Source: Moniliella sp. 'wahieum'
Taxonomy: Eukaryota
Length of the DNA: 64,000 nt
Direction: 5' to 3'
Assembly (NCBI GenBank): GCA_003971905.1
Contig: RSEE01000062.1
Coordinates: 186,001 to 250,000 of the forward strand
This document shows positions 7,433 to 51,952 of the stretch, piece after piece. The notes under the pieces were generated by a model. It saw only the letters and a list, made by a program, of their open reading frames with translations, had not been told where the DNA came from and did not search any database. How positions within the stretch are numbered: the stretch's first letter is position 1; each line of letters starts with the position of its first letter. Both the position numbers and the translations under genes were made by a program.

Positions 7433-9126
7433 ATGGACCACGGCACTGGCGGCATCAAGATCTTTGCGGGCTCCTCCCATCCCGAGCTGGCCCGCCAGAT
7501 TGCGAAACGGTGTGTTCCCTCGTTCCCCGCCCCCCCCCCCCCCTGCTACCGGTCGACTGCGCCTGAGCGCTCAGCGCCGCTTTTTCGGCTCTGATCGACC
7601 GTGGTCTCCCCGCTCTGCGACCACTGACCACGGTACAACGCACACCATACTGAGTAAAAAGGTAGCAAGTGAGTACGGTGTACTGACTGCTTTGTGTTTT
7701 TTTTCTGCGTTCATCTTGCTTGCGCTTTGGGGTGTGTGCTTGTGCTTGCGCTTGTGCTTGTGCTTGTGCCTGCGTCTGCGCTTGGGCCGCTAGACTTGGA
7801 CTCCCCTTGGGCAAGGCGATTGTCGCCCGGAACGAAGTGGGGGAGAGCGTGGTGCGAATCGGAGAAAGTGTGCGGGGAGCACGATGTGTACATTATCAAT
7901 ACCTCTTGTTGCACGCCGACAGTCAAGCCAACCGGGTGCGGCAACATGTTCTTGTCGCCCAACACGTCGTTGATGGAAACGCTGATCATGATCCATGCGT
8001 GCAAGGGTGCGTCGGCCAAACGTGTCACAGCTGTCATCCCGCACTTTTACTATGCCCGCCAGGATAAGAAGGACAAGTCCCGCGCGCCCATCACGGCCAA
8101 ACTCGTGGCCAACATGCTGGAAAAAGCCGGATGCGACCACGTGATCACCATGGACCTCCATGCGTCTCAAATCCAAGGCTTCTTTGACGTGCCCGTCGAC
8201 AACCTCTATGCCGAACCCGCCACGTTGCAGTACATTGGCGAAACGCTCGACATGGACGAGATTGTGATTGTTTCCCCCGATGCGGGCGGGGCCAAACGCG
8301 CAACCTCCATCGCAGATCGCTTGAATGTCGACTTTGCCTTGTTCCACAAGGAACGAAAACGCGCAAACGAGGTGTCCCGCATGGTGCTCGTCGGCGATGT
8401 GCGCGGAAAAGTCGCCGTCTTGGTGGATGATATGGCAGATACCTGCGGCACACTCGATCAGGCCGCTCGCAAGTTGACTGAGAATGCGCGAAACGCGTAC
8501 TGGCCCTCGTCACCCATGGGATCTTGTCCGAGCCAGCACTCGAACGCATCCGTCACTCCACCCTCGAAAAACTCGTCGTGACCAACACGCTGCCCCAGAC
8601 ACGCAACATGGCCCAGTGCCCCAAGTTGGAACAGATTGATATTTCTCACGTTTTGGCAGAAACCATTCGCCGCGCTCACCATGGCGAATCAATCAGCGTA
8701 CTCTTCACCCAAGTCCCTTACGATACACTCCAGCCCTACCGCTCCCACGCAAGGGACGGTGACGAGGCGGCCAAAGACGGGCCTAAGTTTGCCATGCCAC
8801 TGCTACTGCCACTGCCACCGCCACCGCCACGGCTCCGGTCACAGCACCAGACAAGACACCTACCTTGGCGCACCCGGCAGCCGTGGTTGTGCCCTGCAGT
8901 CCAGCCCCAGCTACGCTCCCGGCCCGCGAAGCCCCCGTCAGCCCTCCCACACGATCGCAAGCCACCACGCCCAGTCCGCTGCGCCAGGTGGCTGGTGCCC
9001 ACAGCTAGGCGCGGTGGCAGAGACGGCGTGCGGGTACTGATTCAACGGCGTAGGACGGGTGGGGTGGCTCGGGCTGTCGTGCCGCCGCTGGATCGTGCCA
9101 CATCTCCCATGCTGTCCTGGGTCTGA
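7433..9126 (+). CDS. PRS: Ribose-phosphate pyrophosphokinase (PRPP synthetase)
   Basis: [20 protein letters not shown], intron 7510-7793 (GTGTGT...TAG), [76 protein letters not shown]. Two apparent frameshifts; the end after ~8720 is uncertain. Confidence 0.95.
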
Positions 9127-9694: not shown

Positions 9695-12600
9695 ATGCCC
9701 CCCAGGGTCAGCATCGCCCCGCGCCGCACGTACGCCGGGCGCAAGCGCAAGCACCCCGGCACCTCGGCCTCGCCCCGCCTCCCGACGACACCTCGTCCCG
9801 CGCCCTCCGCACCAACTTCCAGAGCCTCTCGCTCCGCGACCACCCTCCCACTCCCGCCCCCGCCCCCGCCACTCCCACCGCCCATCGCAATCCCAGCCCC
9901 AGTCCCATCCCGATGCCGACGCCGACGCCGACGCCTCCTTCGACGATCTTTCCGACACCCCCCGCTGTCTCCCGCTCACCGCCGCCGACGCCCGACTGCT
10001 CTACTCGGGCCCCGCCAACGTGCTCCGCCAGCAGCGCAAGCCCCTCCTCCTCCGCCTCTGCCACGCCCTCCAGCCCTCCGCTGCCCACCCGTCCCGGACT
10101 AAGAACGATCTCATCCGCTCCCTCCTCCTCCTTCGCCGTCGCCACCCTCCTCCGCTGACGTGCCTCGCCGCCGCCCCGACCGCGCGGTCGCCAACGCGCC
10201 AGCTTGCAGCCGCCCAAGGCCGTCTCGGTTGCCTCCACTTCCAGTGGCGCCGCAGGCTGGGCCGACTCGGACGACGAGCCTGATCCCGCACCCCACCCCC
10301 CTCCCCCGCACCTTTGCCCCCGTCGCCACGCCAGACCACCCGAACACCAAGCGTCGCACCGCCGACGCAACCCCAGTCGGGCCTCCTCCTGCCTTCCTCA
10401 CCTTTGCTGCCCCTTCGCCCATCCGGACACGTGCGCGTGCCCAGCGGGACCCCCTCCGAGCACGGCCGTCGCTCCTTCCCCCGCGCGCACGGCGTGGTAC
10501 ACGATCCAACGAAGCAGCTGACGACGACCGCGATCCTCTACCTCTTCGCGCCCGCACTACCACTGCTAAAATGCTGCCCCGCGCACGAGCCGATTCCCCC
10601 AGCCCACGCAAGATGCGTCGTCTCCGGAACGGAAAAGTCTGTGCCGTTGCGCGGGGGGCACAGAGCAGCAGCCGTCCTTGGCTTCGGAGTTGAGCTCGGA
10701 CGAGGAACGCAACAAGAGCAGGAACAGGAACAGGAACACGAACACGAACACGAACAGGTCCCGCTCCGAAGATCTTCTCGTTCAACACGGCGCGGCCACC
10801 AGCTCTCCAGCTCTGGGTCGCTGAGTGCCTCCCAAACTGTGCCTCCTAGTCCTGGACCAAGTGTCAGATCCCAGTCCAGTAGTCGCGCCCGCAGCCGCAC
10901 CCGCAGCCGCACCCGCAGCCGCCGACACCACCCCAGTTCCAGCCCTGTCCCAGCCTCGTCCGAGACCGAGGCCGAGGCCGATCCCGACGCCCCTCCGTCC
11001 TCAATGGAGAGCAGCCGTCCAGTTCGCCGCCGTGGACGCAGAGCGGCCCCAGCTCACGAGCGCCACGAGCGCGACTCGACCGAAGAGCAGGACGCTGGTT
11101 CGGACACTTGGGCCGACGTACCTATGGACCTGGATCCCGTCGAGGAACACGACTCCCACACACCGATAGGTACACGCAGATTACGCAATGGCAAGGTACG
11201 CGTCGAGTATGTTGCTGTTGCTTCGGTCTCTGGGGAGGAAGGTGCAGCTGCCGATGCGGGTGGCGAAAGAAACCAGGACGATGGCCAGGGCCAAGTCCAG
11301 GCCAAGACCACAACCACGACCACGACCAGGATCAAGAAGATCAAGAGGAGGAGGAGGAGGAGGAACAAGGCGACACCACCATCCGCCCTGCTTTGGCTGG
11401 CTCCACTCGCTCTGCCTCCCGCTCAGAGTCAAGAGAGGTGTCACGGGACAACAGGCATCCCTCCAAACCCTCCCCCAGCGCCGAGAAATCATGCGGAACA
11501 CCCTACTTCGAACTCGCTCAAACCGCCTGCTCAAGGCCGATTTGTTGTCCCTCTGCATCGATCGTGGCTTGGACGTCACGTCCGAACAAAAAAAGGTGGA
11601 TTTGGTCGCTGCACTGGTCAAATGGGTACGTATCCGCTAGGTTTTCGTTTTGCCTTCGGGACCGGAACCAAACTAACCATTTATATCCTTCAGTCCGAAA
11701 CCAACCCTGCCCCGGCCACCGCTCGACCCGGCGAGGCAGAAGGGACAGGCCCAGTTACCGCCGTGCTCCTCCGGCAGAAGTCAAGGAGACGGAGGAGGAG
11801 GCGACACTGTTGGATCTCGAGGCGCTCAAGTTGGTGGACAAGCATATTGACCCGCGCCTCTTGCACAAAGGGAGCAAGATTGGCAGTGGCGGGTTCAAGG
11901 ACGTGTATCGCGGCACGTATCAGCTCGGCACGGCCAAGCGCGCACGTAAGATGGCCGTGGCCATTGCCGAGTTGCGTGGCCAACTAACCGAAATGGACAT
12001 TAAGAGCTCGAGGTCCTGCGCGACCTTAACCACCAAAACATTGTTCGCTTCATTGTGTCTCGGTCGACCCGTCCCAATACCGATGTCCCCTGCACCATCG
12101 TCTCAGAACTATGCACACACGGAGACTTGTACGAGTACATTCGTAATGTGCCCGCCCCTTCGGATGTTGAAATGGTACGTACCCCTTCGGTCTTCCTTTC
12201 TGTCTCCCTCTCCCTCTCCCTCTCCCTCCCCTTCTCCCTCGTACAAAATCAACAGTATAGTCCCGCACTTACCGCCCCGCACAACTGCTGACTCGGCCCC
12301 ACCCTGCCTCTTGTCTCTGCCTCTGCCTCATCCTCTTACCTATTCCGCATTATGCTCATGACGGCCGAAGGCTTAAACTACCTCCACACGCAAACCTGCC
12401 ATCCATCCATCGCGACATCAAGTCGAAAGTCTTGATCACCGCCCAGGGAGCCAAGATCAACGATTTTGGCCTGGCGCTGCGCGGTGTCCGGCACGACAAA
12501 CGGCGCATGGTACGCTCCGTGGTCGGGACGGTGAATTGGCAAGCGATGGAGCTTGTGCACCCCAGCCCTTGTACAACGAAAAAGTCGATGTCTGGAGCAC

Positions 12601-12887
12601 AGGCATGACGTTTTGGGAAATCCTCCAGTGGCCCCAGCGACAAACGCTACCCTTTCCAAAACCTCAACGAACACCAAATTTATCGCGACGTGCGCGAACG
12701 AGGCTTGCGCCCTCCAACGGCTAACCTCCGCCGTCGGTTTGGCGGTGACGTGGTCGACTTGATCGAGTCCATGTGGGTCGCAACCCCCCGCGAACGCCCG
12801 TCCATGGCTCAAGTATGCGATCGTCTGCGTGAACTGATCGCCCAGCGGACTGAGACCCAGCCTGAGGGTCTGAGATCGGAGTCCTGA
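9695..12887 (+). CDS. Ser/Thr protein kinase (TKL-like C-lobe, WNK-like N-lobe) with long disordered N-terminus and two SAP/HeH-like motifs
   Basis: IGSGGFKDVYRG, VAIAEL, HQNIVRF, ELCTHGDLYEYIR, HRDIKS, INDFGLA, VGTVNWQA, KVDVWSTGMTFWEIL, ERPSMAQV. Introns 11626-11693 (GTACGT, ACTAAC, CAG) and from 12175 (GTACGT). Several frameshifts. Confidence 0.9.
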
Positions 12888-13832
12888 GATGTCAGATCAA
12901 AGCGAACTTCCAAGAAGAATTCGCTCTGTTGGTGGCCGCGTCCCAGCCCTCCTCCGTCTTATCCACCACCACCACCTGTCCTCACCGCGCTACCACATCC
13001 ACTCCCCCGCCCTTGTTTGCCTTTGCCATTGCCTTTTTGCTCTTTCCCCTCCCCTCCCCTGTCCTTCCTCTTGCATACTTTCCCTCTAACTCGTTCTGGC
13101 CTCGTCATTGCTCTTCCCCCCGCCACCTCACACCTACGTCACATGCCCCAGTCCTTCGTCTTTCTCGCATCTGCCGCTCATATGCTCGTACCTTCGCTCT
13201 CTTCCACCCATCCAACTATAACGGAAGGAGGGAGGGATTTATACGTAGTACTCCTTCCCGCCCGTGTCCCCACCTGATGTCCCATGTCCCAGTCCCATGC
13301 TTCTCTCCACCTGATCTCTCTGCTGCAGTTGAACGGCGATGGTGGATAAGATCGATAACCGATAACCATCAAACCACCAAGCCACTATCCCGACCCCATC
13401 CCGTCTACTACTCCTATTCCTAGTCCTAGTCCTATCGATCGATCCTACCCCCCTTCCTATCTCCAGCCCTCTAAACCTAAACCAACCTAAACCTAAACCA
13501 CAAACTCAATCCAAAATGTTCTACATCATCAAAAGCCCCAAATCCAAAGTTAAAGAAAGGATTATCTCAAGCTTGAGCTTCGAGCGTCAGGGCTCCTCCA
13601 ATTCAGCTGCTTCAATTTCCTGGGACAATCTAACAAGAACACCACCAAGAATATCATATGAGGTGAGGACTGGAAGTCAAAGATAAATGCCACTATAGCG
13701 AAACGAGATGAATTGCATCCATTCGAAACCACAGAGGAAGGATGGAACATGGTCGGGTGGGTCATGATGGTGTACAATACGATATCGATGAGTGGCACAG
13801 ACATGGAATAGTGAACAAAGGATACACAATAG

Positions 13833-15333
13833 TTATTGGGGTTTCCTTCGACGGAAGTACGCCACCACTCCTTGAGACACGAGTAGCCTTCTCATCAAAC
13901 GACTCGTTGGAGTCGCATGCGCATTGGCCAGACTGGTGGTACTTGGGATTAGCCGGGCAATGCGTGTAAGGGTCGTGAAAGTACCCGATTTGATCAAACT
14001 GATAAATGCGGCTGCGGTCAAGAATAAGATGGCGGCAATGGAATGAACAGGGCATCTCCCACCGCTCGTAAAAGAAACCCCCAGCTTGGTCCAGATGATC
14101 AAAATACCTTTGATACGCTTCGCTTCGCCAGAATCGAAGATCAGCAATCTCAAATTGGACCAAAAGTGGCACAGGTTGTATCCCGGCTCAAGCAGTCGCT
14201 CCGCTCGTCGGTCATAAAGTGCAGCCCATTGTCTTAGCCAGATACTGGGATACTTTTTCAAAAACTTCTTCGTCTCATCCACAACGTGGCGATCGTCTCG
14301 GGGAACTCGTGCAGAGCTATTGTGAACCCAACGTTTTGTTGTTCATCTGCATGAACAAAAGGGTCAAAGTCAATGTCGCAGTAGAGGTGGATGCTGGCTC
14401 GACCCGCCAATAGTAATCGAGATCAAGGGTAAGGGGGGTGTTTGAAAAAGAAACCAGACTGGAAGCGACACAGTGTCGGTACGACTCCGAGGAGCATAGA
14501 TAATGTCTTTCATCTGTTCCCGCGTCTCAGCCGCTTTGGTCTGGTTGATCCACGCAGGATAGCCCCAGTTTCGGGACCAACTTTGCCAAAGCGGATCTCG
14601 AGGGGTCATGGAGCGAACACCTTCTGAATTCGTCTGCGTGTAAAGTGTGAGTTGAGTCTTCTGAGGGAGGGCAGTCGCTTGTGAAAACAAAATCGAAGAT
14701 AAACTGACCGTAAAGTCCTCGTCATTGAGGAAGATCCAAGGATATCCGAACTTGCGATTGAACTTTTCCTCCACATCTCGCATGGAGCTCATCATGTCAC
14801 CCAGCTCCTTGTTACGAACCAGAACAATAAAGCCGGCCTTGGCGCGGACGGCTTTGGTTGGCTACTGCAGGAATAAAAGCGGGGGGGAAGAGGTTGCCAT
14901 CACTGCCCTTTTCGGCCCATTGGGTGAGTTCGTGGATATGTGGCAGGCGGCTGGCTAGCTGAGACAGAGTAGAGCCAGTCGCCTGGGCTCACCTCACCGC
15001 CTTGTACCTGTACCGTGGCGGTAGGAGGGTGAGAGACAGAAGGACGCCCATTATCCGGTGCTGAAGGACGCTGGAACTGCTGGCCGGCCCAGGCGGTGGC
15101 TTGGCCACCTGCATTCTTGGCTGCCTCGACCCATTGCTGCGTTTGCTTAGTGCCAGTGCTGGTGAATCCGAGCCAGGATACGAGGCTGATTACACAAATT
15201 GCCGAGAGGGCGAGAGCAATCAGGCGCGAGGACGGCGGAGGAGCGCCTGGAGCCCCGTTCGTGGGCGAACAGCATAATAGGTACCGTTGGAGGAGGCGTC
15301 GTCCCCCCCTAATAGCTGGTACCGTGGAGGCAT
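13833..15333 (-). CDS. Alpha-1,2-mannosyltransferase, glycosyltransferase family 15 (Kre2/Mnt1/Ktr)
   Basis: N-terminal type II TM segment, AGFIVLVRNKEL, EEKFNRKFGYPWIFLNDEDFT, GYNLCHFWSN, FEIADLRFWRSEAY..YFDHLDQAGGFFYERW, HSIAA, IGYFHDPYTHCP, C-terminal CxC...SCL. Heavily frameshifted; both ends approximate. Confidence 0.9.
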
Positions 15334-15631
15334 TGGTTGGACTTCTGATGATGGCGGTAGAGAGGAAGGCAGCAGCCTGAGAAGACGAAAAGGGGTCGTG
15401 TCGGTTATGACACTGTGCGCGTGGATTGGATTCCCAGGCAGCTCACTTCCGTAGTTGTCCCCCGGCCGCTTACTTCCCCCGCCATCGGCCATATACTTTT
15501 TTTTCGTCCAGAGGTCCGATCGGAATGCACCCTTGTAAGGGTCATAGTGTCACAGCGTGCGAATGATTAATGAAGATGCCTGAAGCTTGAAGACTAATGA
15601 AAAAATAGCCGTCTTAATTGGATGAGATCGA

Positions 15632-15672
15632 TGAGATGTGAGATGTGAGATGTGAGATGTGAGATGTGAGAT
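15632..15672. repeat. (GAGATGT)n heptamer microsatellite
   Basis: Visible tandem run. Confidence 0.9.
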
Positions 15673-16528
15673 CTGAGAGATCTGAGAGCGGTTGAATGTT
15701 GAACACGTTGAACGTGTACGTTGAACGTTGACGCCCCGGATGAACGTGAGGTTTTGATGGTACGGAGTAAACCACGTCAGACATGTTCCAGGCGATACGC
15801 GCTCCGTACCTAGTAGGTTTTAGCCACCCAGTGGCCACTCGGTAGCCTCATTGTGGCTCACATGAATGAAAGGGCGGCCGTGGGTCAGCGAGTGAAGGGT
15901 CACTGTGACGAAGTGACAGCCATATATCACAGTGACATGTGACATGTGATGATAGGTGTGAGTCTCTCCCTGTCTCTCCCTCGAGTACAGTGCCTATGAC
16001 ACACTGGCGTGTTGCGTAGCTATGGAACGAAAAGGCGAGACCGAATTCAGGCCTCTCCGTGACTGCTGGCCGAGACTGGAGCCCGCCCGGCACTCCGTCT
16101 CCATCCACGTCTCGAGTCTTAGATCTTAGAGAGGGCCCGCAACGCACCCTGGCCGCGGAATTGCCAGGGCCTTTCTCTGGGTCGCGACATGGCAGAGGAC
16201 TGGTGACGAGAGGCTGCGGGCTACTTCGCACTCGGAAATGAACGGCCCCAACGAAACACATGCTCCCTGATCTTTTCCCCTTTCGAACAGCTCTATATTA
16301 CCATCCCTTCGCCTCTCCTCTCTGTTCTGCACCCATATTTGGCTGCTATACTTATATGTGTTTCGACTCACTCATCGCTCACAGGCGGGACACGCCGTGA
16401 ACCGAGCATATGAGGCCGAGGCCTGACCGGCCTGAGAGCATCCATCACGGATACCATATCCTGTCCCGTTGCTAAATCAACCGCGTTCCTTATCGCGACG
16501 ACTGCTGGCTGATGTTAGTAAGGGCCGC

Positions 16529-16584
16529 AGAGTCCCCTTTTCCGGCGAGAGCCCCCTTTCCGGCGAGAGCCCCCTTTTCCGGCG
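16529..16584. repeat. 18-19 bp tandem repeat, about 3 copies (GAGCCCCCTTTTCCGGCGA)
   Basis: Direct inspection. Confidence 0.85.
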
Positions 16585-17572
16585 TCAGCCCTTCCTGCGG
16601 GCGACGACGAAGATCACCCCCCCCCCCCCCCCACCCCATGTTCCTTGCCCCGGGGCGGCTTGTTATAGTATACCGATTCCGATTTTATCTTCGGTCTGGC
16701 CTACAATAACCCTGTACTCATCTGATCACTGCCATAAAGTCCACCACTGCAGTGTCCTTGGCTGGCGAAATTTCTCTTTCATTTGCTGATATTAACATTG
16801 GCGCATCGGCCCTCTCCCCGGCTGTAGTACCCGGCTACGCCATGACCGCTACTGTTAAGGCTGCTCCCCCCGGATCCCACTTCTCCTAACGCGACGCGCC
16901 GCTGTCGAGAGTCCCTCTGGCCGTTCATTTCGCCATCAGGCAATCGCGGATGAACGGAAAAAGATACTAGAAGGTTTAGGTACCTGCACATTGTCCCTTG
17001 GCCTGAAAGCGTTCGCCCATACCGGTAAGACTATAGTGCTCTCCCTCGGCGTGTACTTCCCTATGGAACCGTAAAGCATAAAGCACGCGCCTGGCATGGC
17101 TCGCGCACATCAGCCTAAGGACACCTTTGACCTGACTTCCTCTTCATCATCAGTTGTTCCGCACTAACAGTCCGTAGGGCCCCGCGTGTACAAAAGTCGG
17201 TTTCTTCCTTGGCCCGTTCGATAACGTCAGGGAGCCTATCTCTCGGCGCCATTGCATGAAGATTTATCTGAACCCACCCCGAGGCTGGGAGGTGCCGCCG
17301 GGCCATTGTCATCGCGCCGAGCGGCCGTTTGGCGCCTCGAATAGTCCCCGGATACGCCTAGTACCGCTAGTACCACTTGTCGAAACCTTACTGTGGGCCA
17401 CGGCTTCCGGCAATCCTTTAAGGAGTCCTCTGCTGTTTCGCGCCCCCCCCCTCCCCAAACGCTCCGCAGACACTATCACAGCCTTAGCTTTTTTTGTGGA
17501 TGACCCCCTCTAGCTGGTTTCTTCTCCATCGTGCTTTACCAAACCTTTTTCTCGCAGAGAGCCCAGGTACAA

Positions 17573-17760
17573 GGCATGATACTGAGCTGTAGTGACCCTC
17601 TATCTACCTTTCTTGGCGCCTTCTACGTTGATGCACCCATCAACAGAGGGTACACATTGAGCCAGTGCACCTTCATACTTACACTCGATTCTGCCCAAGC
17701 CCGATGAGCCCGAGTTCAACCAGCACCCATCCTACTGATCCAAGACCTCCGATTGGTACC
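17573..17760 (+). pseudogene. Possible decayed Copia RT fragment
   Basis: Translates to SDPLSTFLG...YTLSQ then PKPDEPEFNQHPSY*SK, colinear with GPLHYHLG...LYLSQ...ADPEPP...AYQGK of the intact element. Weak similarity. Confidence 0.3.
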
Positions 17761-18305
17761 CCCAAATAAGCCGACGAGACCCTGCCTAACCCAGCAACGG
17801 AGCGCAACCGTTATTGCGTGCTATCGTTGGGTCCCTTCCACTGTTGGATTGTATTACCTGCCCTGTTGAACTGTGCTAACACAGTGTTCGCCTTATCTTT
17901 CGGTTCGCTGCTGCACTATCCAAAGCAGCAGCACGGGCCGCGTTACTTCCTCCGCCACCTCAGGAGAATATTGGCAACCTTTATGGGTCCACCCGAGCAA
18001 TGTAAGTTGTGTGATATATGCGAGAAGGCACAATATCGAACCACCTGTCTTGTTGACCGAAATGGATGAAGGTCATCCTTCTCCTCCCGTATTAAGCGAT
18101 GTTGGTTGTGCCCTTTTTTCTCGAGACAGTGACGGTGGGGCAACAATGCAGTGTTCGGTTTCAGTATTCTGGCCTCATTCCCACAATGGTACTTTGCTGT
18201 GACAGGATCTGGGTTACTTCTGGATCAGCTGGAATCGTACACTTAGTACTTTGTTGTGCATCTGAGGTCCCATTGTTATAGCTCTGTAGACCAAATGCCT
18301 CATGT

Positions 18306-18458
18306 TGTCGGATGAGATCTGCCCAGTGGTCTGCTACCGCTGAGGAGGGAGATGGTGGACTGAGGAATGAATTACTGGGGGCAGAAGCCTCGGGAAGATC
18401 TACTCCGGAATAAACCGGAGGCGGAATGGGCTGGCCGCAGATGGCGTCTCACTCAACA
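18306..18458 (-). mobile_element. Solo LTR (153 bp)
   Basis: Plus strand TGTCGG...TCAACA, i.e. TGTTGA...CCGACA on minus, the same termini as the intact Copia LTR. Perfect 5-bp TSD CATGT (18301-18305 and 18459-18463). Confidence 0.8.
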
Positions 18459-18899
18459 CATGTCACCTGGCATCGCTCGAATTTCCACTCTCAAACTTAA
18501 GGACGAGTTACCGTGAGTGAACTAACCTCCTAGGAAAAGCTCTGAAAGCCGTCGTATCCACGAAACACCTCATTGGAATCCCTTACCGGTTTTCACCGCT
18601 ACTGTGAGAGATTCATACAGGCGACGCTTCAAGGTTCTGATTCATCGCTTTGTCTTTGCTCATTTGATCCCGGAAGATCTAAGGGCATCCAAATCGCAAC
18701 CCAAAAGTCTACCACATATCATCTTCATTTCATGGAAAAAGGTCGGTCGTATGAGATTGGCCATGTTCTACCAGCGCTTGAGATATTGTCCATCTCATTC
18801 AAATTACAGGTGTCGTTCGCTATCAACGTCCACAAATGGTCACCTCTTATTCATGTTACTCAATAAGATTTTCATCAATTCTACCGGCACTAACTATTC

Positions 18900-21350
18900 G
18901 ATTGGTGGAACTGATATATCTTCTCGGTTTGGCTGGAAACCAGATGATCCTTTATTCCCACTCAATGCATACACACTCGGTGTCTTTCAGATTGAAGTAG
19001 CGTGTGCCGAATATACGATGCATTGCAGTTAAATCAAGTCTTCTAGACAATTCAGAAAACATAACTATCGGTCCCCCTGAGGCGGAGGAAGGCGTGTGTT
19101 CCATGTCGGATTTAATATCCCAAAGTCTATGAGTGTTGTCATCATGTGGTCTACCGAAAGAGCTTGGTTGGAGTATTACTGAGTAGCATTTGCGTTACAC
19201 GTTACCGGTCCGCTGCTCAGCATGAGGAAAGTATTGCTGCCTGAAAGTGTTGAATCTGGTCATTTATGGCCAAGGTCACTTCCAAGTGACATCATGGTGT
19301 GATGCGCGTGTGATGTTTTCTGACGTGGCGTTTCCGACTCCATGATGACTTGGATTTGCCACGCCTTAGAAATTTGATCTCCATCGACCACCATTCCCTT
19401 TGCTGCGCTTTGAGCTCTCCTGGGCGTTAATGAGTTACAATCTGAACCTTTCCTTCTGAGTAACTTCTTTCTCATCCATTTTATCTCTGTGCCTACTTTA
19501 CTACTCTCCACCCTCCGCTTCCGAGCCTACAACTCAAGCCCACCCGAACCACCCATACTTACCTTCGTCCCTCCCCAATGTCCGCCCCCTGGTATAACCA
19601 CCTCTTCCCACCTCCTTCGAACGATGAAGAGGCCAGAATGTCAATAGAGCCTCGGCCATCCTCAACAATCTCCAAGATCATATCGCACTTTATCCTCTCA
19701 ACAGAGCGTGCGCAGCCCCCAACATCCCCAACTCCAAATCGGCTCTGACATCCTGTCAACAGGACGTCGATCGCCTGGGCCGTTCCCACCTTGACAAGGA
19801 TCCCACTGCCTATGCCCGTGCCCTTGAAAAAGGGCCATGATTTAACCTCGATCGTGGTACGCAGCTCAGCGAGGAACAGCTCGTACGCTTGTGCGTCAGC
19901 ACATGCAATCAAAAGTCATCGGTGTGCAGGCAATCAAAACTAGACCAGGTTTGAACGGCGGAAAAAGAGAAATGGTTCAGAGCGTAGGCGCCGGAAGCCC
20001 AGACGGCCCACATAGGTACTGCCGCAGCCACTTGTTAAAGTTGGCGCGCTCTGGTCCATATAGACTCTTCTTTAGCTTCCAGCACGTGCCGGGTCCATCG
20101 GAAAAGAAGGGAGGAGAATGGACGTATACGTCTTCGTCGAGGTCGGCATAGAGATAAGCCGCGTCTAAATGTTCTTTGCTAACCCTTTGTTGTGTCAATC
20201 GGGCGAACCCATGCCCGTCGCGCATCCCGTCTGCTAAAAACATTTTCGATTTCTATGTGTGCGCTCTGATCGTGTGCACATGTTAACCAAGCACTTGGCA
20301 TGTTGAAGAGGCTTTGTGTTTTCACTTAGTAGGCGTACATCGTTAAATGTCTCAATTCCATTCTATGGACCTCCATACCGTCCGTATATCGCACTCTTCG
20401 CTTTCGCGAGGGGTCCACGAAGACGCGCGCCTTGCAATTTGTGGATAATGGAGACAGCAATAAGTTTCATTCATGTCTGCTTGTCATCGGCCCTACCTTG
20501 GCCCAGTTCTCCCGATGAGTATTAGAATGATGGTCATACTGGACGAAAGCTTCTGCTTATAAATCGTCGAGCAAATTGGCCAAAGAAAGAAAAGTCGACT
20601 CGTGACTGCGGGGTCCAATCGGTCCTGGGAGCGATGTCAACCAACAAAACTCGCTTTCAAATTTTACAAACCCTCAGCCCGACCCGGCTCCCCCAATGGC
20701 AACAAGACCTGACATCGGTTCTAGGTTTCGATAATTGCGTTCTCGTTGATGTCGGAAGCAATCATCGTCTGTGGACAAAGCGGTAAAAAACAATCATGGG
20801 CCGAAGACGGGGAGCGAGGCCGGATGAGTATATGTGCTCACTTACCCAAGATGCACTTCCAAGTGCCGAGGAGGCCTTGGCCTCGGCTACGCCGAGTACA
20901 TAGGTCCCCTGTTTTCATGTGGATTAACCGACCCAATTTTCAATGTGATTGCCTCATCAGTAGAGGTAAACCGGAAGGGCGCGAGGATCCATGCATTTGT
21001 GCGGGGGTCCGAATGGTCATCAATCATACGTATTCTTGTGGGCGATGGCAATCGCACCCCTTGTGACAGTCGCACCCCTTGCCTGTTCATATCTTGTGCT
21101 CTTACCCAAATGTTTGGGCGGATTGGGGACGAAGCGTAGGGAGTCTGTTTATTTTCTTACAATGGCGCTATGCTCCCATTCATCACGGAAAGGAAAAGTA
21201 AGAACACTGCTGCTGCGGTGCCACTGGTCGCATGTCACCAGTGTAACACGCAGTTCAGCACACAACATATACGCAGATGTTGGTCCGAAAATCGGGAGCA
21301 TGACTGCCGCCTTGGGAGGCCACCTTCGGCGTCTGTCACTCAAGAACAAG
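18900..21350 (-). pseudogene. Degenerate Ty1/Copia pol relic (pre-integrase, integrase, RT, RNase H)
   Basis: Minus-strand fragments in Copia order: AAVMLP..AELRVT..RDEW (~21300-21170), MIDDHS (~21020), LDAAYLYADLDEDVYVHSPPFF...WKLKKSLYG (~20170-20050), HTDDF (~19925), SDLG..FLMLSSGPVT and TLIDFG (~19280-19110). Many stops and shifts; ends approximate. Confidence 0.75.
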
Positions 21351-21616
21351 GTAAAAAGGGTTTAGTATTGGCCAAGTTGTTATTTGGTCAGCTGAGAAGG
21401 CTGTTCGAAGGTGATTCCTTCAATCTCTAAAAAAAAAGGAGACGGAAGTTGTTCGTCAGTCCAGTCCGGGTACGAAAGGTGAAGGGGGTAGGGGGTGGAG
21501 TGTTGCTGATTGTTTATATGAAAGACGCCGAAGGGGAGAGTGGGGTTGGGTATGGGTAAGGTGCGAGGAGATGAGAATATGGAGAGTGCGGGGTCATCAC
21601 CGTTGCTCACTGGAAT

Positions 21617-21776
21617 TGTTGACATCCGTCCTAGGACCGCGCGGACCCTGAGTCACGTGAGTCAGCTTTCATTCCTTCCGAGCTCGCACCAGTCTTCTGG
21701 ACGAGTCAGTCGCAGAAGCTTCTTAGTCCAATACGACGTTCAGTGCTCACATTCTGTGGTAGTAGCGAGGCCGACA
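21617..21776 (+). repeat. 5' LTR
   Basis: Matches 26516-26675 base for base on my reading. Confidence 0.95.
21649..21664. promoter_or_regulatory. Tandem TGAGTCA (Gcn4/AP-1 type) sites overlapping a CACGTG E-box in the LTR
   Basis: TGAGTCACGTGAGTCA; the copy in the 3' LTR is at 26548-26563. Function is inferred. Confidence 0.45.
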
Positions 21777-21787
21777 GAGTTACATCC
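21777..21787 (+). promoter_or_regulatory. Putative primer-binding site complementary to the tRNA-Tyr(GUA) anticodon arm
   Basis: GAGTTACATCC directly follows the LTR. The reverse complement of spliced tRNA-Tyr nt 30-40 (GATTGTAACTC) is GAGTTACAATC. Confidence 0.6.
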
Positions 21788-21830
21788 TTATCTGCTCATC
21801 CCTGAGCTGGCCAAAACTACACCCACAACC

Positions 21831-23078
21831 ATGGGCGCCAACGCTAACACCGATCTCTCGGTCAGCGACACCACAATGGTGAACAAGCGCGATTACTGGA
21901 CACCAACCGGTCGCGATCCGCCACCGATTGGCACCGACAACGAGGAACTCATGATGCTTTGCGCCGAAGCGCACCTGTGGTTCAAGAAGACGAACGACAT
22001 CGATGTCGTTAAAGAGAAGATCAACAGAGCTATACACGACAGAGCCGAGTGGCTTGGATGGAAGGACGAACCTACGTCTATCACGACAAACTGGGTTCGA
22101 CGGGCTACGAATTTTGTGGTGCAAAACATCCACCAAATGGAAACTCAACCCAACGCAACTTTGGGGGCACCTACAGGCGCAGCCTCGCGACCCGAGTACG
22201 ACCTTTACAGATCACTACGCGAGTCTCCCACCAAGAATATCAAGTGGCCTGATCTGAACAAAGACCCGTCCGCCTACAGCGCTTGGGAAGACGAATTTCT
22301 CTTCGCGATAACAGATGCCCACCCCCACGCAAGCGACGTCGTCCAGAATGGTCGCAGCTCCCGCTACTTCACCGAGGACCTCGACAGACGCTTGCACAAC
22401 CTTCTTAGGGAAGCCATGCCGTCAACCCTCTTCCGGACGATCCGCACCCACCACGAAATATCATGCACCCAGGACACGCTGAACATGCTGCGTCAGCGGT
22501 ATGGATATACGCCTACCGCAAACAGAGGGCCTCTACTCATTCGCTACTTTTCGGCCGACCAAGGAAACCGATCGGGTCGAGACTACCTCGACTACATGGA
22601 AGAGATCAGTGCAAGCCTGACGCGAGCGGGCATCCCACTTACGGAAGAGCAGGAACGCACTGGGATCCTACTCGGCTTACGCGACATGAGCATTCGCCAG
22701 CGTGAAGAGCGCTCGAGTCTAGACAAGTTACGGCAGGCCGTGATGGACATACCAGCCGCCACGTATCCCGGTGGAGAAAGGAAGAGAAACGGAGGCAAGC
22801 CGGTCAACGGAGGAACGCCTTGGACTCGACCCGACAGCGGGGGACGACCCACCAGCGGGGGAAAAAACTCCAGCGGGGGCAAAGCCGGCGACGACAACCT
22901 CGCGGACACAAAGACCAAGGGGCAAGACCGCACCAACCAACCCTGGCGCAGCGCGACGTCTAATAAACCTGTTGTCCCTCCGCGCAACCCAGGCCGAGCC
23001 AACGCTCACGTCGCTCAGAGAGCGAGCTCTCCCGAGTCTGAAGTGATTGACGTTGATGCGGGCACAGCTGACTACTAG
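21831..23078 (+). CDS. gag: Copia Gag (no CCHC zinc knuckle visible)
   Basis: ATG 54 nt after the LTR, Gag-like YSAWEDEF and YLDYMEEISASLTRAGIPL segments, basic Gly-rich C-terminus, ends at an in-frame TAG. Confidence 0.85.
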   Translation: MGANANTDLSVSDTTMVNKRDYWTPTGRDPPPIGTDNEELMMLCAEAHLWFKKTNDIDVVKEKINRAIHDRAEWLGWKDEPTSITTNWVRRATNFVVQNIHQMETQPNATLGAPTGAASRPEYDLYRSLRESPTKNIKWPDLNKDPSAYSAWEDEFLFAITDAHPHASDVVQNGRSSRYFTEDLDRRLHNLLREAMPSTLFRTIRTHHEISCTQDTLNMLRQRYGYTPTANRGPLLIRYFSADQGNRSGRDYLDYMEEISASLTRAGIPLTEEQERTGILLGLRDMSIRQREERSSLDKLRQAVMDIPAATYPGGERKRNGGKPVNGGTPWTRPDSGGRPTSGGKNSSGGKAGDDNLADTKTKGQDRTNQPWRSATSNKPVVPPRNPGRANAHVAQRASSPESEVIDVDAGTADY

Positions 23079-26000
23079 GAACTCGGGGGCGAAATGCGAA
23101 TCATCCGGGCATTATATGACAGTGGGGCATTCCCATCCATTTGGAAAGACAAATCCGTCTTCACATCCATGACCCCTTGCGACGACGAGATAGAGGTTGC
23201 TAACGGGACACATGTAAAGGCGGAAGGACGAGGCACGGCCACAATCCGTATCCGATGCTTAGGAGGACACCAAATGGAGATAAAACTCCCCAACAGCCTA
23301 TACATGCCCCGTTTCAGCCGAAATCTCGTCAGTGTAGCACACCTGTCGAACACCGGAATCGCATCATACTTCGCCCCACACCAGAAGGGTATCTGGCTTG
23401 GTAACCCAGGATCCACCCTACGAAAAGTAACCGGCAGTGACTATCAATTCACGATCTTACACAACCCGCGAACGCCACCCACACCCCTGCGGGCCATGGC
23501 GACCAAACCGATCAAACCGGCCGACCCACCCTCAACCCCAAACTCCCTCGCAGCATCCCTGGCCCTGGACCACGTCTCTAAAGCCCACAAACGCTGGAAC
23601 CACGCAGCCATCGACCTCCTCCCCTGGCTTACACGATCGGAAACCGCAGGCCTCCGCGTCACAGCCAAGCATATCTCCCTCTGTCGTTCAGAGTGGGATT
23701 GCCCAACATGCGCGGTGGCACTAGCGACAGCATCGCCCCATCCGAGCCGGGACCGCCTCCGATCCAAAAGACCTTTCGAGGTCCTCCACGTCGACGTAGT
23801 AGACCTCCCCCGGGTAACCGGCATGGGGCACGGATACGCCCTCGTCGCCGTTGATGACTTCACGCGGTACGTCTTCACCACAGCGATCCCGACAAAGGGC
23901 GCTGCAACGAAGGAACTGCGGAACCTCATATTGCGGGAGCAACGCTACGGCCCGGACAGACTGCTGCGGACTTTGCGCACGGACAACGCCCCCGAATTGA
24001 CAAGCGCACTGCAACCTTTTCTGGACGAGCAAGGCATCACGTCAGAACGGACAATCCCGGGGCAGAGTGCTAGCAACGGTGTGGCTGAGCGTGCCATCCG
24101 AACCATAACGACTCGTGCAAGGCAGTTGCTCTTGGGTACAGGTCTTCCGACGTCGGACTGGTGGGAACACAGCCTCCACGCTGCGTGCTTCACCCAAAAC
24201 CAAATGCCACTCAAAACATCCGGGGAAGACAACAAATCGCGATTTGAGCGATACAAAGGCCACGCATACTCGTTACCGATGCAACCCTTTGGCCGCGTTG
24301 CATACCTCCATCTGCCCGAGTCACGCCGCGAGCACAAGCTCAGCGCGCGGGCAGAGGAAGGTATGCTGGTAGGATACCACCATCAGCGCGGATCAAAGGG
24401 ATGGCTCTTCGCCACATACCAACCATCCCTGGGTACCTTCACCTACCGCTGGTCGAAACCGTACAAATGGGGCAACGCCATCTACCCCCATCTCCACCCC
24501 GACCACTTCCCACCCGACATCTCCAAATCACCTCAAATTAAAATCGACAGTGAAAAAGACGCTAACCCTACTCCGCCAGCCGCGGCAGCACCCATGCCCC
24601 GAACCGCCGCCACACCCCAGACACCCGCTCCCACCACCACCCCCCCTCCGCGCCGCTACCCCCTCCGCCAGCGCACCACCCGCACCTCCCTCGACCTGCA
24701 CACACTCCCAATCGCTGACGACCCCACCGACACGACCTACCATGCTCGTGCTGCAGCCGCCACGCCCCCACGCCCGCACCAGAGATCGGCATCGCCCGCC
24801 CCCTACCTGACACATCCGCCCCCCCGTTTGCCGACACAGTTCAACCTCCCGAATACGCCGCCATGACTGCTCTCAGCGCACCCATCCACCCGGACACGGT
24901 TCAGCTCACCAAGGATGGCGTACCCCTCGCTCCCAAGACGCTCAAGGGTCTCGAGACTCACCCCTCCTTTGCCATGGTCAAGCAGGCTATGGCCGACGAG
25001 GTGGCCACACTCGCGCGATACGGCACCTACGAGGCTACGTACCCACCACCGGGTGCACAAATCCTCATAGGACTATGGCGCATCACCACAAAGACGGACG
25101 CCGAGGGCCGGTTCCTGCGCCACCGCGCGCGCTTTGTCGCGGGCGGACACCAACAATCGGCCGAGACTTGGGGCCAGACGTTCGCACCATCGGTGCGCAC
25201 ACCTGCCATCCTGACCCTCGTCGTGCTGGCCGAGAAGTATAAGTTTGGCCTCTTCTCGGCGGACGTCAATGCAGCGTACCTGAACGCCCCCCTCGAAGAA
25301 GCAGTCTACATCCGCCCACCCCCCTACTTCCCCGAAGCGGGTGGTCGCGTGTGGCGTCTCAAGAAGAGTCTATACGGGCTACATCAGAGCGGAGCAAACT
25401 GGGCACGATACATCCGGAACCTGCTGCGTGACAAGCTCGGCTTCACGCAAAGCTTGACCGAGCCCTGCTTGTTCGTGCGCGCTGCACCACCGGGTGAGCA
25501 GATCCTCCTGGCGGTCCACACCGACGATCTGCTCCTCGCATGCAAGTCACACCAAAAGTACGAGGAGTTTATGGCCGAGATAAACACACACATTGATGTT
25601 CGTGGTAACGGTCCCCTTCACTACCACCTGGGATGCCAATACGATCGGATCGGTGGGGAGCTGTACCTGAGCCAACCAAAGTTCATCGAGGAAGTGGTGG
25701 CAAAGCACCACATCAAAGCCCCGTGGATCCGGACTCTCCCACATCCCGTACGGATGATACCGCCCCGTGCCGACCCTGAACCCCCATCCCTCCCAGCCTT
25801 GCGCAAGGCATATCAGGGGAAGATCGGATCGGGACTGTGGGCTGCACGAATGGGCCGGCCTGACTCCCTCTTCGCTATCACGGCCCTCAGCAGAGCCGCT
25901 GCCGACCCATCGCAGCAGCATCATCAAGCAGTCGATGACTTCCTTCGCTACCTGTACCATACTCGAGGAAAGGGCCTGAGGTTGACCCCAACATCAGATG

Positions 26001-26521
26001 CACCGGCCATTGCGCTGTATACAGATTCCGACTTGGCGGGAGATCCCATCCAGGCACGCTCCACATCTGGATGCCTACTGATGGTGTACGGTGTGCCGGT
26101 GTCGTGGCGATCCATTCTTCAGCCGAAGAGCGTTACCAGTACCGCCGCCGCCGAATATACGGCAGGATATGATGGACTGGTTGACGCCAACTATGTCAAG
26201 AACATCATGATCGAGCTTGGGGCCATCGGCGAGGGTACACCCATTCATTGGTATTGCGACAATAAGTCTGTCGTCGATCTCGCCCACAAATTTGGCAGCA
26301 CCGGCAAGCTCCGAGAGCTGAAGATCCGGTACCACAATGTACGGCAACACGTGGACTCGGGCGAGGCCATACTTGTACACATCCCCGGCGAAAGGAACCC
26401 AGCGGACGTCCTCACCAAGCCTCTCGGCCGTCCCGCCCTGACAAGCCATCTTGCTCAACTCCGCGTCGAGGAGATGGATCCAGTCCACATGACTGGGCCC
26501 TCCGGTCAGCGGGGGTGTTGA
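23079..26521 (+). CDS. pol: Copia Pol (protease, integrase, reverse transcriptase, RNase H)
   Basis: PR LYDSGA; HKRWNH...CPTC; IN LHVDVV, VDDFTRY, RTDNAPE, NGVAERAIR; RT RARFVAGG, ADVNAAYLNA, LKKSLYGLHQSG, VHTDDLL; RH YTDSD, AEY, CDN, PADVLTKPL. One frame change in the C-rich IN-RT linker (~24760-24860). Confidence 0.95.
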
Positions 26522-26675
26522 CATCCGTCCTAGGACCGCGCGGACCCTGAGTCACGTGAGTCAGCTTTCATTCCTTCCGAGCTCGCACCAGTCTTCTGGA
26601 CGAGTCAGTCGCAGAAGCTTCTTAGTCCAATACGACGTTCAGTGCTCACATTCTGTGGTAGTAGCGAGGCCGACA
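26516..26675 (+). repeat. 3' LTR
   Basis: Copy of 21617-21776; the pol stop TGA lies in its first 6 nt. Confidence 0.95.
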
Positions 26676-27276
26676 GAATTGCGAAGGGTTGTAACTTCCG
26701 GATGGTTCTCAAGTCTCAAGGGTGAGATGTAATCGCACTGGTGGTGATGGTCTGTCAACCAGCAACACCTAATACCGATAAGGAACATCAAGCAGCTAGT
26801 CGTGACCAGGGGATGCTAGCCTGTACCTTGCCCCCCCCCCCCCCCCCCCCCCCCCCCTCAATTGCTCTCCTCATCTCCTACTTCAGTGCTCCACCACTCC
26901 GCCTTGTTGTCACGGTTACTCTTTGCACCACCGCTCCCCTTTTAAGGTATGGGAGGGACGCGTCGACGCGACTCTGTATATGCCCGATCGTTGGCGTAGC
27001 CAGCCCCACCTCCCCGTCACGTGCAGGTCGGGGAGCAGTAGGGTTGTTGGCACTTTTCTTTGCCTGCTGCCATATGGAAAGTAGTAGATAGATATACCCC
27101 GGTGTCACGTGCTCGCAGGGATCCAGCGCACGCGTCTAGCCCGTCTCGCTCGCCGTGCTGCTCAGAGTCGCTGCCGTGCACACCACCCGCACGCCAACAA
27201 GAGTAGCTGTTACGACTTTCCCACATCCATCTCCAGTCAGATGCCCAATAAACAGGGATCGAGAGGTAGGTCGGTC

Positions 27277-34574: not shown

Positions 34575-34670
34575 GGCGAGATAGCGAAAGTGGTCTAACG
34601 CGCTGTGTTAAGGACGCTTAATCCTAAACCGCAGTCATCCGGGGCGTGGGTTCGAATCCCACTCTCGTCA
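34575..34670 (+). tRNA. tRNA-Leu(AAG) with intron
   Basis: GGCGAGA/TCTCGTC acceptor stem, D-loop GTGGTCTA, CTGTG-TTAAGG..CGCAG anticodon arm interrupted by ~16 nt, long variable arm, GGTTCGAATCC, T6 terminator. Confidence 0.9.
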
Positions 34671-34804
34671 CTTTTTTACACTGAACCCCCCGCCATTCAC
34701 TCCCAGAAAACACATAACGCCAACTACTGAATGAATGCAACCATGTATCAGGTCATGTGGTGGTCTAAGCAAATTCACTACACATGACCTGTGAGTGGCT
34801 AAGG

Positions 34805-35764: not shown

Positions 35765-38700
35765 TTAGGTCCCCGTCATGTGCGCCACATCCTTACGCCA
35801 GACCGAGATGTGCTCGTCGGCCTGGGCCTTGCACTGGTCCAGTGCGCGCTGCAACGAGCGCACCACCTCATCATCGGCGCCCGTCTCGTTCTGCAAGCTA
35901 GTGTACAGTGCCTGCAACTGCGCATAGCGCATCTGACTCTCGTCCAAGCTGGCGCGCAAGTCGCGCACCTGCGCCAACAGATCGACGGACACTTGCTGGC
36001 TCTCCTTTGGGCTTGGGTGGATTGTTGGTAGGCCTTCTCTAGCGCTTGGAATCGCGCCGTCAGCAGCGTCACGTCTTCCCCCGTCTCGCCCTCGGAACCA
36101 GCACCGACTTGGCGCTGAAGCTACGATAGAGGAGATGGGCGTTCGTCAGTACCTCGTGGCGGTTGCGGGAGGGGGGCCAGGGGGGGAAGGGGGAGGACGT
36201 ACCAGTTCCTTATCATTCTTCAGCTGCGCGTGCTCTGCTGCAACGTGGCCAGGACCTGTCGGTGGGCATCCAATTCGGCCGTGACATTGTCCAAGTCCAG
36301 TTGGTATTTACGGCGAGACTCATGGAGGGCCTGCTGGGCCGCTCGAGCTGCTTGAGCATGTGCTGGCGTTCCGTTTCAAAGGCCTGCTTGTCTCCGTCGG
36401 CCGGGGCGGCATGAGCTTTGGAGCTGGCGGATCTGTGCGCGCAACGAATCGGCCTCGGTTTGGGCGAGATGAGCACGAGCTTTGCCTGAGCCAGCTCGTG
36501 CTCGGCCTGCTGAGTGCGAACTTGGGTCCGCGCTCGGCCCTGGTCGCCCTTGACACGGTCCACTCGAGCGCTTGCAAGCGGGCATAGTACTGGTCCGCTT
36601 TGGCTTTGTACAGGTGCGCCGTCTCGCGTGCCTCGGCCAGGGCATGGCTTCCGCTAGACGAGTCGATTTGGAGCTCCTGCAACGCCGTGCGCAACGAGGC
36701 AGTTTCCATCCTGCCCTGGTTGTGGGCCAAGCGCTCGGCATCGAGTGCGGCGCGCGCCTCGGCCAACTGGTCTCCAGCGCATCTCTCGACCGTACCACCT
36801 GAGCCAAGTCCTGCTTGACTTGGATCAACTCGGGCTGACTCGACTCGTCTTGCGCGCGGCCGAACTGACATTGTCCGCCGAGTAGCGGCCGAGGCAACGC
36901 GGCTCTCAGCCAAGGCCTGCGCTTGGGCAGAGTAAATGTTGCCCCGCGTGCCCCCCAAACATGAGCGTTTTGCGCTTCACGTCCCCAGCTGCGCCAAGCG
37001 GGCCCTTCTTTTCGGCGAGGAGAAGTCGCGCGGGGTCTGCAGGGGCGAGGGGGGGAGAGAACGGGCGTGTTGCGCTTTTGGCTGCGGAGCAAATCTGCTT
37101 TGGCCTCCATGTCGCTCTTCGAGCTCGTCGTGGCCAATGCGGAGCTCATCGAGGATCTTTTTGGTCAAGTCAGGATTGCCATGCCCATGAGCAACAACTC
37201 CTCCAGGTTGGCAAACGTGGTACCCCGAGCGGCCTGGGAGCTGCGCAGTTGCTTTTCCAACGCCGCGATTCGCGATTCGTACTCGTGCTTGGTCCGAGCC
37301 AAGATTTCTTCGGCATGCAGCTCTTTCCTCCGGCTTGTCGACAAGGCTTCGTCTCTCTGCCGGCGTGCGTCGCGGGAAGACTGTTGGAGCTGGGCAAGCT
37401 CGGTAGAATGCTTGTTGCCCTGGTCCGCATGAAGTGGGCGGGTACGATTCAGCTGGGTAAGTTGGTGGGTCAAATCTTCGTTTTCGCCAATCAGCCTCGT
37501 CTTGGTCTTTTCAAGGGTGCGAGTGTAGTTGAGGAGTTCATGCAACTTGGCTTGCGTCTCAGCGAGCTGACGGTCAGTATACTTTTTGGCTTCTTCCAAT
37601 ACATGGACATGCTCGACAATTGTCTTGTTGGTCATGCTCTGCGCCCGACGCAACTCCACCTGTGTTTCTGCTAGGGCCGAATGAAGTTGAGCCAATTCGG
37701 CCGCCTGGGCCTGTGCGTCCCTCTCCAGCTCAACAACTTGGTTTTGAAGCGCGGTTGCTTTGGCCGTGACCGACCTGTGCAGGTCTCGTTCCGCCTCGAG
37801 GTCCAATGCGAGAGCAGCATGCTTGTCCTTCCACTCTTGCCGGAACGTTGCAACGGCACAAGCTGTTCGTCCTCCAGGGCACGGTGTTTCGCCTCGGCCT
37901 TGGCCAACGCAGCTTTAAGCTGGTCGTGCCGATTGTTGACAGTGTCCAACTCGCGTGAGACCGACTCATGATGGGACCGTGCCTGAGCCAAGTCGGCCTG
38001 GGCAACGGACTTGGCTTGCTCTGCCGCGGCCAAACTCTCGCCCAGGAGAGCAAGTTGAGCCGTGTGGTGGTCGACTTGCTGTTGAGCAGCCTCGAGTGCC
38101 TGTTGGGAAGAAGCGTGCTCCGCTTGCCAGCGCGCCACCTCGGACGTGAGCAGGGTAACCTTCTTGGTGAGTTCCGTCTGGGCCTGGCGTGCGCGTGTTG
38201 GTCCCGAGCCAGCTGGGCCCGCAGCTCCGACAGTTCCTCCGCCTGCGCAGTTTGGAGTGCGTGTAGTTTCTCGTCGCCCTCTGAAGTCTTTTCCATCAAC
38301 AAGTTGGTCGTTCGATCCAGGTCCGCCTGCAGGCGTTCGGTCGACTGCACCAGCTCGGCCTGTCGTGCCTGTGCAGCCTCCAACTCGGCTACCGTAGCGT
38401 CCAGGTGGGCCTTGTGTTCGGTCGAGGCAAGCTTGTGAGCATCCCGCTCGCGTTGCGAGACAAGCAGCTCCTTTTTAGCTGCGCTCAACTCTGCTGCGGT
38501 CGCGCGGTGTGCCGCCTCGACTTGTTGGTGCGCTTGCTTGAGGCTGTCCATCTCGAGTGCAAGGGCTTGATGGTGAGTGTCGCGTTGGGCCGACTCAGAT
38601 TGGAGGCGTTTGCGCGCGCTAACGGCCTCGCTCAAACGATGTTCGATATCTTCCACTTGCTCCTTCCAGCGTGCTTCGGCCCGCTTGCGATCCTCCTCAC

Positions 38701-51880: not shown

Positions 51881-51952
51881 GGCTCGATAGCGTAGTGGTA
51901 ACGCGTCCCTGACCTATCGGCGATGTCATGGGTTCGATTCCCATTCGAGCCT
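51881..51952 (+). tRNA. tRNA-like gene with disrupted anticodon arm (CCT/Arg by position; possible pseudogene)
   Basis: Perfect GGCTCGA/TCGAGCC acceptor, GCGT/ACGC D stem, ATGGG-TTCGATT-CCCAT T arm, TTTT downstream. Anticodon arm TCCCT-GACCTAT-CGGCG pairs poorly. Confidence 0.7.

Follow-up and report, generated by a model that had tools for sequence, protein, structure and literature searches.

How does a retrotransposon make Pol when a stop codon stands between gag and pol in one and the same reading frame? The question is raised by a Ty1/copia long terminal repeat (LTR) retrotransposon of 5064 bp that occupies positions 21617-26680, on the + strand, of a 64,000-nucleotide stretch of DNA from Moniliella sp. 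'wahieum' (assembly GCA_003971905.1, contig RSEE01000062.1, positions 186,001 to 250,000). This whole stretch is hereafter called the window; all positions below are those of the window, and all parts of the element lie on its + strand. The open reading frame (ORF) of gag, which starts at ATG 21831 and encodes 415 amino acids (21831..23075), ends at a TAG (23076..23078), beyond which the same frame continues for 595 codons (23079..24866) through protease (PR) and integrase (IN). The remainder of pol, reverse transcriptase (RT) and RNase H (RH), follows in another frame. A first-pass annotation of the same DNA had described the TAG and proposed that it is read through. The layout it described is confirmed and its interpretation is partly supported: low-level readthrough of the UAG ranks first among the explanations that we weighed, both by elimination and on the analogy of Tca2, Tj1 and murine leukaemia virus (MuLV), with a probability that we put at about one half.

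The junction reads GAC TAC TAG GAA CTC GGG GGC GAA ATG CGA (23070-23099), and its translation is ...GTADY*ELGGEMRIIRALYDSGA. The stop-to-stop ORFs 21522..23078 and 23079..24866 share one frame and a third, 24719..26521, lies in another; ORF coordinates and translation thus agree with the annotation that gag and PR-IN are in frame with a single TAG between them. The translation also places the TAG where the annotation had it relative to the DSG motif of the protease (23118-23126), the Asp being the 14th codon past the stop, with 13 codons between. The TAG is the sole in-frame stop among the 1559 sense codons of gag and pol, 400 of which are one substitution away from a stop.

The position of the gag end was compared with that of related proteins. 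We searched 1.84 billion representatives exhaustively with HMMER, the query being gag joined to 120 residues from the start of PR, with an X at the stop. This gave 89 matches at E<=1e-3, only one of which, P0002 (410 amino acids), covers gag. A second, word-based search with a gag profile against a set of 5.8 billion proteins gave one match among 6944 scored candidates, and this was P0002 again. P0002 shares 28% identity with the gag of the element (E 9e-25), the alignment is ungapped over the last 28 residues, and both proteins stop one residue past the same aligned Asp (..SVDLALSDK vs ..DVDAGTADY). When PR-IN was searched, we found one close relative, P0091 (1004 amino acids), in which IN, RT and RH form a single open frame with 55% identity to the IN part and 69% identity to the RT-RH part of the element; the next best match showed 30%. 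P0002 and P0091 each come from a contig of 5089 bp, and from this shared length they probably belong to one element. A match in an Acidobacteriota metagenome-assembled genome (34 residues, 44%), the sole tblastn survivor of 26 bacterial and archaeal stretches, was judged spurious.

Relatives that have diverged to 28% identity in gag and to 55-69% in pol thus share both the gag end and an open pol, so that a recent nonsense mutation is no explanation for the stop. This is also what the first-pass annotation had argued, and we rejected a random nonsense mutation as the main explanation on the strength of the P0002 gag end and the single stop in 1559 codons. Judged by the protein alignment, the TAG appears to be an inherited gag terminus and not a fresh nonsense mutation. 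Since the IN-RT-RH frame of P0091 is open and conserved, pol appears to have been under constraint in the lineage that kept the stop. Among the 89 matches, 24 are distant copia proteins that align across the junction in one ORF and are collinear with the element on both sides of the TAG; as these single-ORF relatives span the junction, the stop is a derived trait of this small lineage.

A second line of evidence comes from the protease, whose domain we place at 23079..23440 downstream of the stop on the basis of the Pol_BBD match, a structure model and fold matches. With AlphaFold and an alignment of 47 sequences, we modelled the last 36 gag residues, an X and 120 residues of PR (mean predicted local distance difference test, pLDDT, of 78). 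The confidently modelled core (pLDDT >80 from residue 44) begins 7 residues ahead of the catalytic Asp; upstream of the stop the model has, with low confidence, one more strand, VIDVDA. The best fold matches are complete retropepsins, with an E of 4.4e-4 for the protease of xenotropic murine leukaemia virus-related virus (XMRV), and the match to the protease of human immunodeficiency virus type 1 (HIV-1) takes 112 aligned columns, against the 99 residues of that enzyme. In retropepsins, two to three strands precede the catalytic Asp, which is Asp25 in HIV-1. The 13 residues that follow the stop here, or the 8 that follow ATG 23094, are too few for such an N-terminus, which suggests that the protease straddles the TAG and that its N-terminal strand or strands would be encoded by the last gag codons. 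If the model is right in this respect, Pol must be made fused to the end of Gag.

The mechanism that we favour would then run as follows. The TAG at 23076-78 would be the genuine, inherited gag terminator of a recently inserted Ty1/copia-type element in a Ustilaginomycotina-like basidiomycete host. Most ribosomes would end there and release Gag, and a small fraction would decode the UAG by a near-cognate tRNA and continue in the same frame. The residues usually inserted at a readthrough UAG are Gln, Tyr or Lys. The product would be a Gag-PR-IN-RT-RH fusion, and the rarity of the event would set a high Gag:Pol ratio. As in gammaretroviruses, the protease would take its N-terminal strand or strands from the end of gag, and Pol would then have to be made as a fusion. 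The passage of the stop by translation, the frequency of that passage and the need of PR for residues upstream of the stop are the parts of this scheme that we infer. As to the recency of the insertion, the annotation had given the LTRs as identical, and the first 161 nt of the 165-nt repeat do match fully.

Several observations weigh against readthrough. The UAG is followed by G; the next hexamer is GAACTC and not CARYYA, as the annotation had also noted; and only 5 of the 8 nt of the spacer are purines. Downstream folds were no better than those of dinucleotide shuffles (z 0.80, with 158/200 shuffles at least as stable; z 0.42, with 126/200). The best H-type pseudoknot among those starting 3-12 nt past the stop, at -9.8 kcal/mol, was equalled by 91/200 shuffles and the best hairpin, at -4.8, by 68/200, so that the downstream hairpin or pseudoknot that the annotation had contemplated does not stand out from chance. 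Nothing in Rfam matched the junction at E<=1. In yeast, unaided readthrough is of the order of 1e-4 to 1e-3 (PMC13517186), and the 300-nt junction of Tca2 gave mere background readthrough, 0.3%, in yeast (PMC2194720). Conservation of the gag end concerns one relative (1/1) and was seen at the protein level; that P0002 ends at a stop codon rather than at the end of its contig, and that the pol of P0091 is in frame 0 relative to it, we infer. The PR region of this relative was found in no protein set searched, P0091 beginning at the IN domain, and the copy concerned may be interrupted in PR. The element itself carries a frame break in pol, and the run of five G that starts 7 nt past the TAG could be miscounted in an assembly that has indel errors.

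The annotation had further pointed to a possible stem between two 9-mers on either side of the stop. These arms exist, CTCCCGAGT at 23029..23037 and ACTCGGGGG at 23081..23089, the latter including the homopolymer of five G at 23085-23089, and they pair in the minimum free energy fold of the 201 nt from 23000 to 23200. The pairing is not above chance, however: a duplex at least as stable was obtained in 429/500 shuffles and at 86/150 sliding positions along the element. Moreover, the stem encloses the stop rather than following it, and would have been melted by the time a ribosome reached the stop. Any stimulatory signal, if present, is thus not of a known type, and in particular not of the MuLV or the tobacco mosaic virus (TMV) type. 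A bolder proposal, which we make tentatively and with more doubt than confidence, is that a basidiomycete copia lineage keeps a UAG inside its protease region where, by current rules, termination should be efficient (G after the UAG, CARYYA absent and no 3' structure better than chance). In such a lineage the expression of Pol would require a signal or a host factor for bypass unlike any yet described, which is the puzzle that Tca2 also poses, and the arrangement would have arisen independently of that of the gammaretroviruses.

The rival that survives best, although we consider it unlikely, is that Pol is made without decoding the stop, from a minor spliced RNA, a separate transcript or (re)initiation at ATG 23094, with Gag translated from the full-length RNA. 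The stretch GCTGACTACTAG (23067-23078) contains CTGAC, which resembles a fungal branch point, and 7 nt further on a YAG that could serve as acceptor and is the gag stop itself. Yet no donor fits: 21 GT...AG pairs would remove the stop, none has an in-frame GTRNGT donor, the best of them (GTGATT) would yield an intron of 36 nt, and apart from the AG of the TAG itself there is none up to the DSG codons. The similarity to P0002, moreover, reaches the last gag codon, so this stretch is coding, and the spliced pol mRNA that the annotation had named as a possible refutation is left with no usable intron. Initiation downstream has in its favour that the first in-frame ATG past the stop (23094..23096) lies only 15 nt beyond it and has a G at -3. 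Its product would, however, begin 8 residues ahead of the catalytic Asp, against about 24 or more in the matched retropepsins, and if the protease straddles the stop, as it appears to, this second way round readthrough named by the annotation is disfavoured too; nor is there a UGGGA reinitiation motif within 120 nt upstream of the stop. As for precedents, the Tca2 junction has a weak internal promoter and splicing was considered there, and Drosophila copia uses splicing to balance Gag and Pol, but free Pol would need its own route into the particle (PMC2194720).

To the possibility that this is a dead or non-autonomous copy we give little credence. In such a copy the stop would never be bypassed, only Gag would be made, and the element would borrow Pol from other elements or decay. 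The frame break between IN and RT speaks for it, as do the relative, whose pol protein starts at IN and whose PR region may be interrupted too, and the absence of a further copy from the 64-kb window, where blastn returned only the element itself and its LTR pair. Against this stand LTRs identical across 161 nt, a lone stop in 1559 codons that coincides with the gag end of a 28%-identical relative, and a pol that is open and conserved in both elements. The break in pol also fits the general indel errors of the assembly. The annotation had remarked that errors elsewhere in the window are indels, and we found such frame changes in three genes. In the phosphoribosyl pyrophosphate (PRPP) synthetase gene (7448-8760, + strand) they fall at 7875/7877 and 8488, without an intron and one of them at a G4 run; in the myosin II gene (36300-42300, - strand) one lies near 39861-39897; and in the pol of the element the frame shifts by -1 in a C-rich tract (24758..24779), across which P0091 is continuous. 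Indel errors thus occur about every 1-2 kb in this assembly, and not just at homopolymers.

The same errors bear on a further rival, to which we attach slightly less weight still, namely that the in-frame relation of gag and pol is itself an assembly artefact. That relation depends on the G run at 23085-89, which separates the TAG from the first PR residue that has homology support, only about 6 codons past the stop. If this run were miscounted, pol would be in one of the other two frames. The -1 frame is closed by a TGA at 23069 and five further stops upstream, but the +1 frame is open from 23047, and if pol lay there it could be reached by a +1 shift of the Ty1/Ty3 or antizyme kind near the gag end. 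One of the indels in the housekeeping genes of the window occurs at a G4 run, and the tract at which the element's own pol breaks frame holds a C5 run. A conserved gag stop would be expected here as well, and +1 frameshifting is used by Ty1 and Ty3 (PMC2194720). Nevertheless, the 4.7 kb of coding sequence of the element contain 20 homopolymers of at least five and one detectable frame break, which suggests a risk of about 5% that the G5 run is miscounted. The Ty1 and Ty3 heptamers CTTAGGC and GCGAGTT are absent from 22900-23150, CTTAGGC being absent from the whole element, and the same interval has no -1 slippery heptamer (X XXY YYZ). The 24 single-ORF copia relatives are collinear with the gag-frame residues as well as with PR, which fits a fusion at the stop and not upstream of it.

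That the host decodes TAG as sense, or carries an amber suppressor tRNA, can practically be set aside, and we rejected a variant code as the main explanation, because TAG occurs once in the 1559 in-frame codons of the element against 8 and 2 times in the two remaining frames, none is present in host ORFs of 692, 495 and 547 codons, the two tRNA genes of the window are Leu(AAG) and Gly(ACC), and the host groups with Ustilaginomycotina, for which we know of no stop reassignment.

The remaining parts of the element are those of a Ty1/copia retrotransposon. Domain order is PR, IN, RT, RNase H, with an RT of the RVT_2 type (Pfam), and it is this order, with IN ahead of RT, that makes the element Ty1/copia-type. 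The PR-IN frame matches Pol_BBD, the barrel of copia proteases (residues 13-93, E 7.2e-12), rve, the integrase core (residues 230-329, E 4.9e-10), and SH3_retrovirus, an SH3-like retroviral domain, and its assignment rests on the ORF list, Pfam and similarity to P0091. The RT-RNase H part (24779..26521) belongs to the third ORF, which is open from 24719 for 600 codons and matches RVT_2 at 2.6e-37. An ADxxTK-like motif, of the kind named in PMC5445492, is present as ADVLTK close to the C-terminus. Four ORFs on the opposite strand or in other frames that cross the stop site matched no Pfam family.

The direct repeat measures 165 nt (21617-21781 and 26516-26680), its sole mismatch being at position 162, which probably falls beyond the LTR end. 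The 5' LTR (TGTTG...GACA) would thus span 21617..21775, its end at ...GACA being set by the TG..CA rule, and the 3' LTR 26516..26674. A putative polypurine tract, AGCGGGGG (26508..26515), is recognised by its position and composition and adjoins the 3' LTR. The stop of pol is a TGA made by the first bases of the 3' LTR (TGTTGA, 26516-26521), directly behind this G-rich stretch. P0091 ends in the same six residues, SGQRGC, as the pol of the element, and from these shared residues the overlap of the pol end with the 3' LTR appears conserved. A perfect 4-bp repeat, GAAT, flanks the element (21613-21616 and 26675-26678), while the 5-bp flanks, GGAAT and GAATT, differ. Target-site duplications of copia-type elements are usually 5 bp long.

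Gag matched no Pfam family at E<=0.01 and has no CCHC zinc knuckle. It is predicted to be helical to about residue 305, and residues 306-415 or so, rich in Gly, Arg and Lys, are predicted to be disordered, which resembles the nucleic-acid chaperone region of Ty1-type Gag proteins. In protein features (Atlas) it lies nearest to the TYA (0.90) and Retrotran_gag_2 (copia gag, 0.88) clusters, a lead only. Its structure model (mean pLDDT 40.2) was of low confidence and too poor for a fold search.

The element is surrounded by eukaryotic genes, namely those for myosin II, importin-beta, adaptin and PRPP synthetase, and the PRPP-synthetase exon is nearest to Ustilaginomycotina, with 81% for Tilletiaria anomala and about 75% for Sporisorium, Ustilago and Moesziomyces, which makes the host a smut-like basidiomycete. 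The window contains long homopolymers, C27 at 26831, C24 at 31708, C16 at 16617, G16 at 40956, C14 at 7530 and G14 at 32188; the C27 lies 150 nt past the 3' LTR and the G16 inside the myosin region, and they are either real tracts or assembly artefacts. ARAGORN predicted a tRNA-Gly at 51881-51953 (+ strand), whose ACC anticodon at position 32 is unusual and may reflect an indel error, and a 97-nt tRNA-Leu(AAG) at 34575-34671 (+ strand) that probably contains an intron. Two overlapping open frames at 10284-11987 and 10883-12361 (+ strand; 567 and 492 codons, 64% GC) matched no Pfam family and may represent a single gene that an indel has split, or else open frames driven by GC content. In the 10 kb upstream of the element (12000-22000) the GC content is 48-56%, against about 60% elsewhere, and this stretch may be older, repeat-rich or degraded sequence.

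An in-frame stop at the end of gag is an established strategy, and what is particular here is a UAG in a basidiomycete copia element, lying inside the protease region without a recognisable signal. The closest parallel is Tca2 (pCal) of Candida albicans, also a fungal Ty1/copia element with gag and pol in one frame, a single stop between them and a bypass that the local junction sequence likewise leaves unexplained (PMC2194720). Tca2 differs in that its stop is UGA, with a purine-rich spacer of 8 nt and a potential pseudoknot after it (PMC2194720), whereas here the stop is UAG, the spacer has 5/8 purines and no pseudoknot exceeds shuffles; furthermore, the host here is a basidiomycete, and the HMMER search found no similarity of its gag to other families. 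In MuLV, as here, a UAG followed by G lies inside the protease-coding region, and PR straddles it, its N-terminus being 4 codons ahead of the stop. The best fold match of the domain downstream of our stop is the XMRV protease, which is closely related to that of MuLV. As a retrovirus, however, MuLV has env and the order PR-RT-IN, while this element has PR-IN-RT and no env, and the purine-rich spacer and H-type pseudoknot that MuLV needs were not detectable at the junction of the element. In Moloney murine leukaemia virus the UAG is read as Gln at about 5% (PMC2194720, PMC13517186).

Tj1, Tosmo1-3 and Tcry1 of fission yeasts are fungal LTR elements in which an in-frame gag stop is conserved across diverged elements, and transposition of Tj1 requires it (PMC10085805). 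They belong to another superfamily, Ty3/gypsy, and their stop is a TGA in a strictly conserved leaky context, GAA-TGA-CT (PMC10085805), whereas GAC-TAC-TAG-GA has no known leaky feature. Ty1, Ty2 and Ty4 and also Ty3 are fungal (Ty1 being copia-type) and make Gag-Pol by recoding at the gag end (PMC2194720), but in them pol overlaps gag in the +1 frame and a defined heptamer is present, while here pol is in frame 0 as assembled and there is no heptamer. Drosophila copia and plant Ty1/copia elements, of the same superfamily and with the same need for more Gag than Pol (PMC2194720, PMC5580714), have a continuous ORF and obtain extra Gag from spliced or subgenomic RNA; here a stop takes the place of that arrangement, and no intron signal fits. 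The literature searched, which did not extend to the main recoding survey, contained no account of the element, nor of any basidiomycete copia with an in-frame UAG; this does not prove that none exists.

Among copia-type elements, few have a stop in frame at the end of gag, and Tca2, the only one to have been studied, is still without a mechanism. Another fungal copia lineage in which the stop is conserved would offer an independent system in which to study how a stop is bypassed without an element of the MuLV or TMV type, and could show whether this placing of the stop, within the protease, is a solution that recurs. For annotators, a single such stop is no reason to label copies of an element as pseudogenes.

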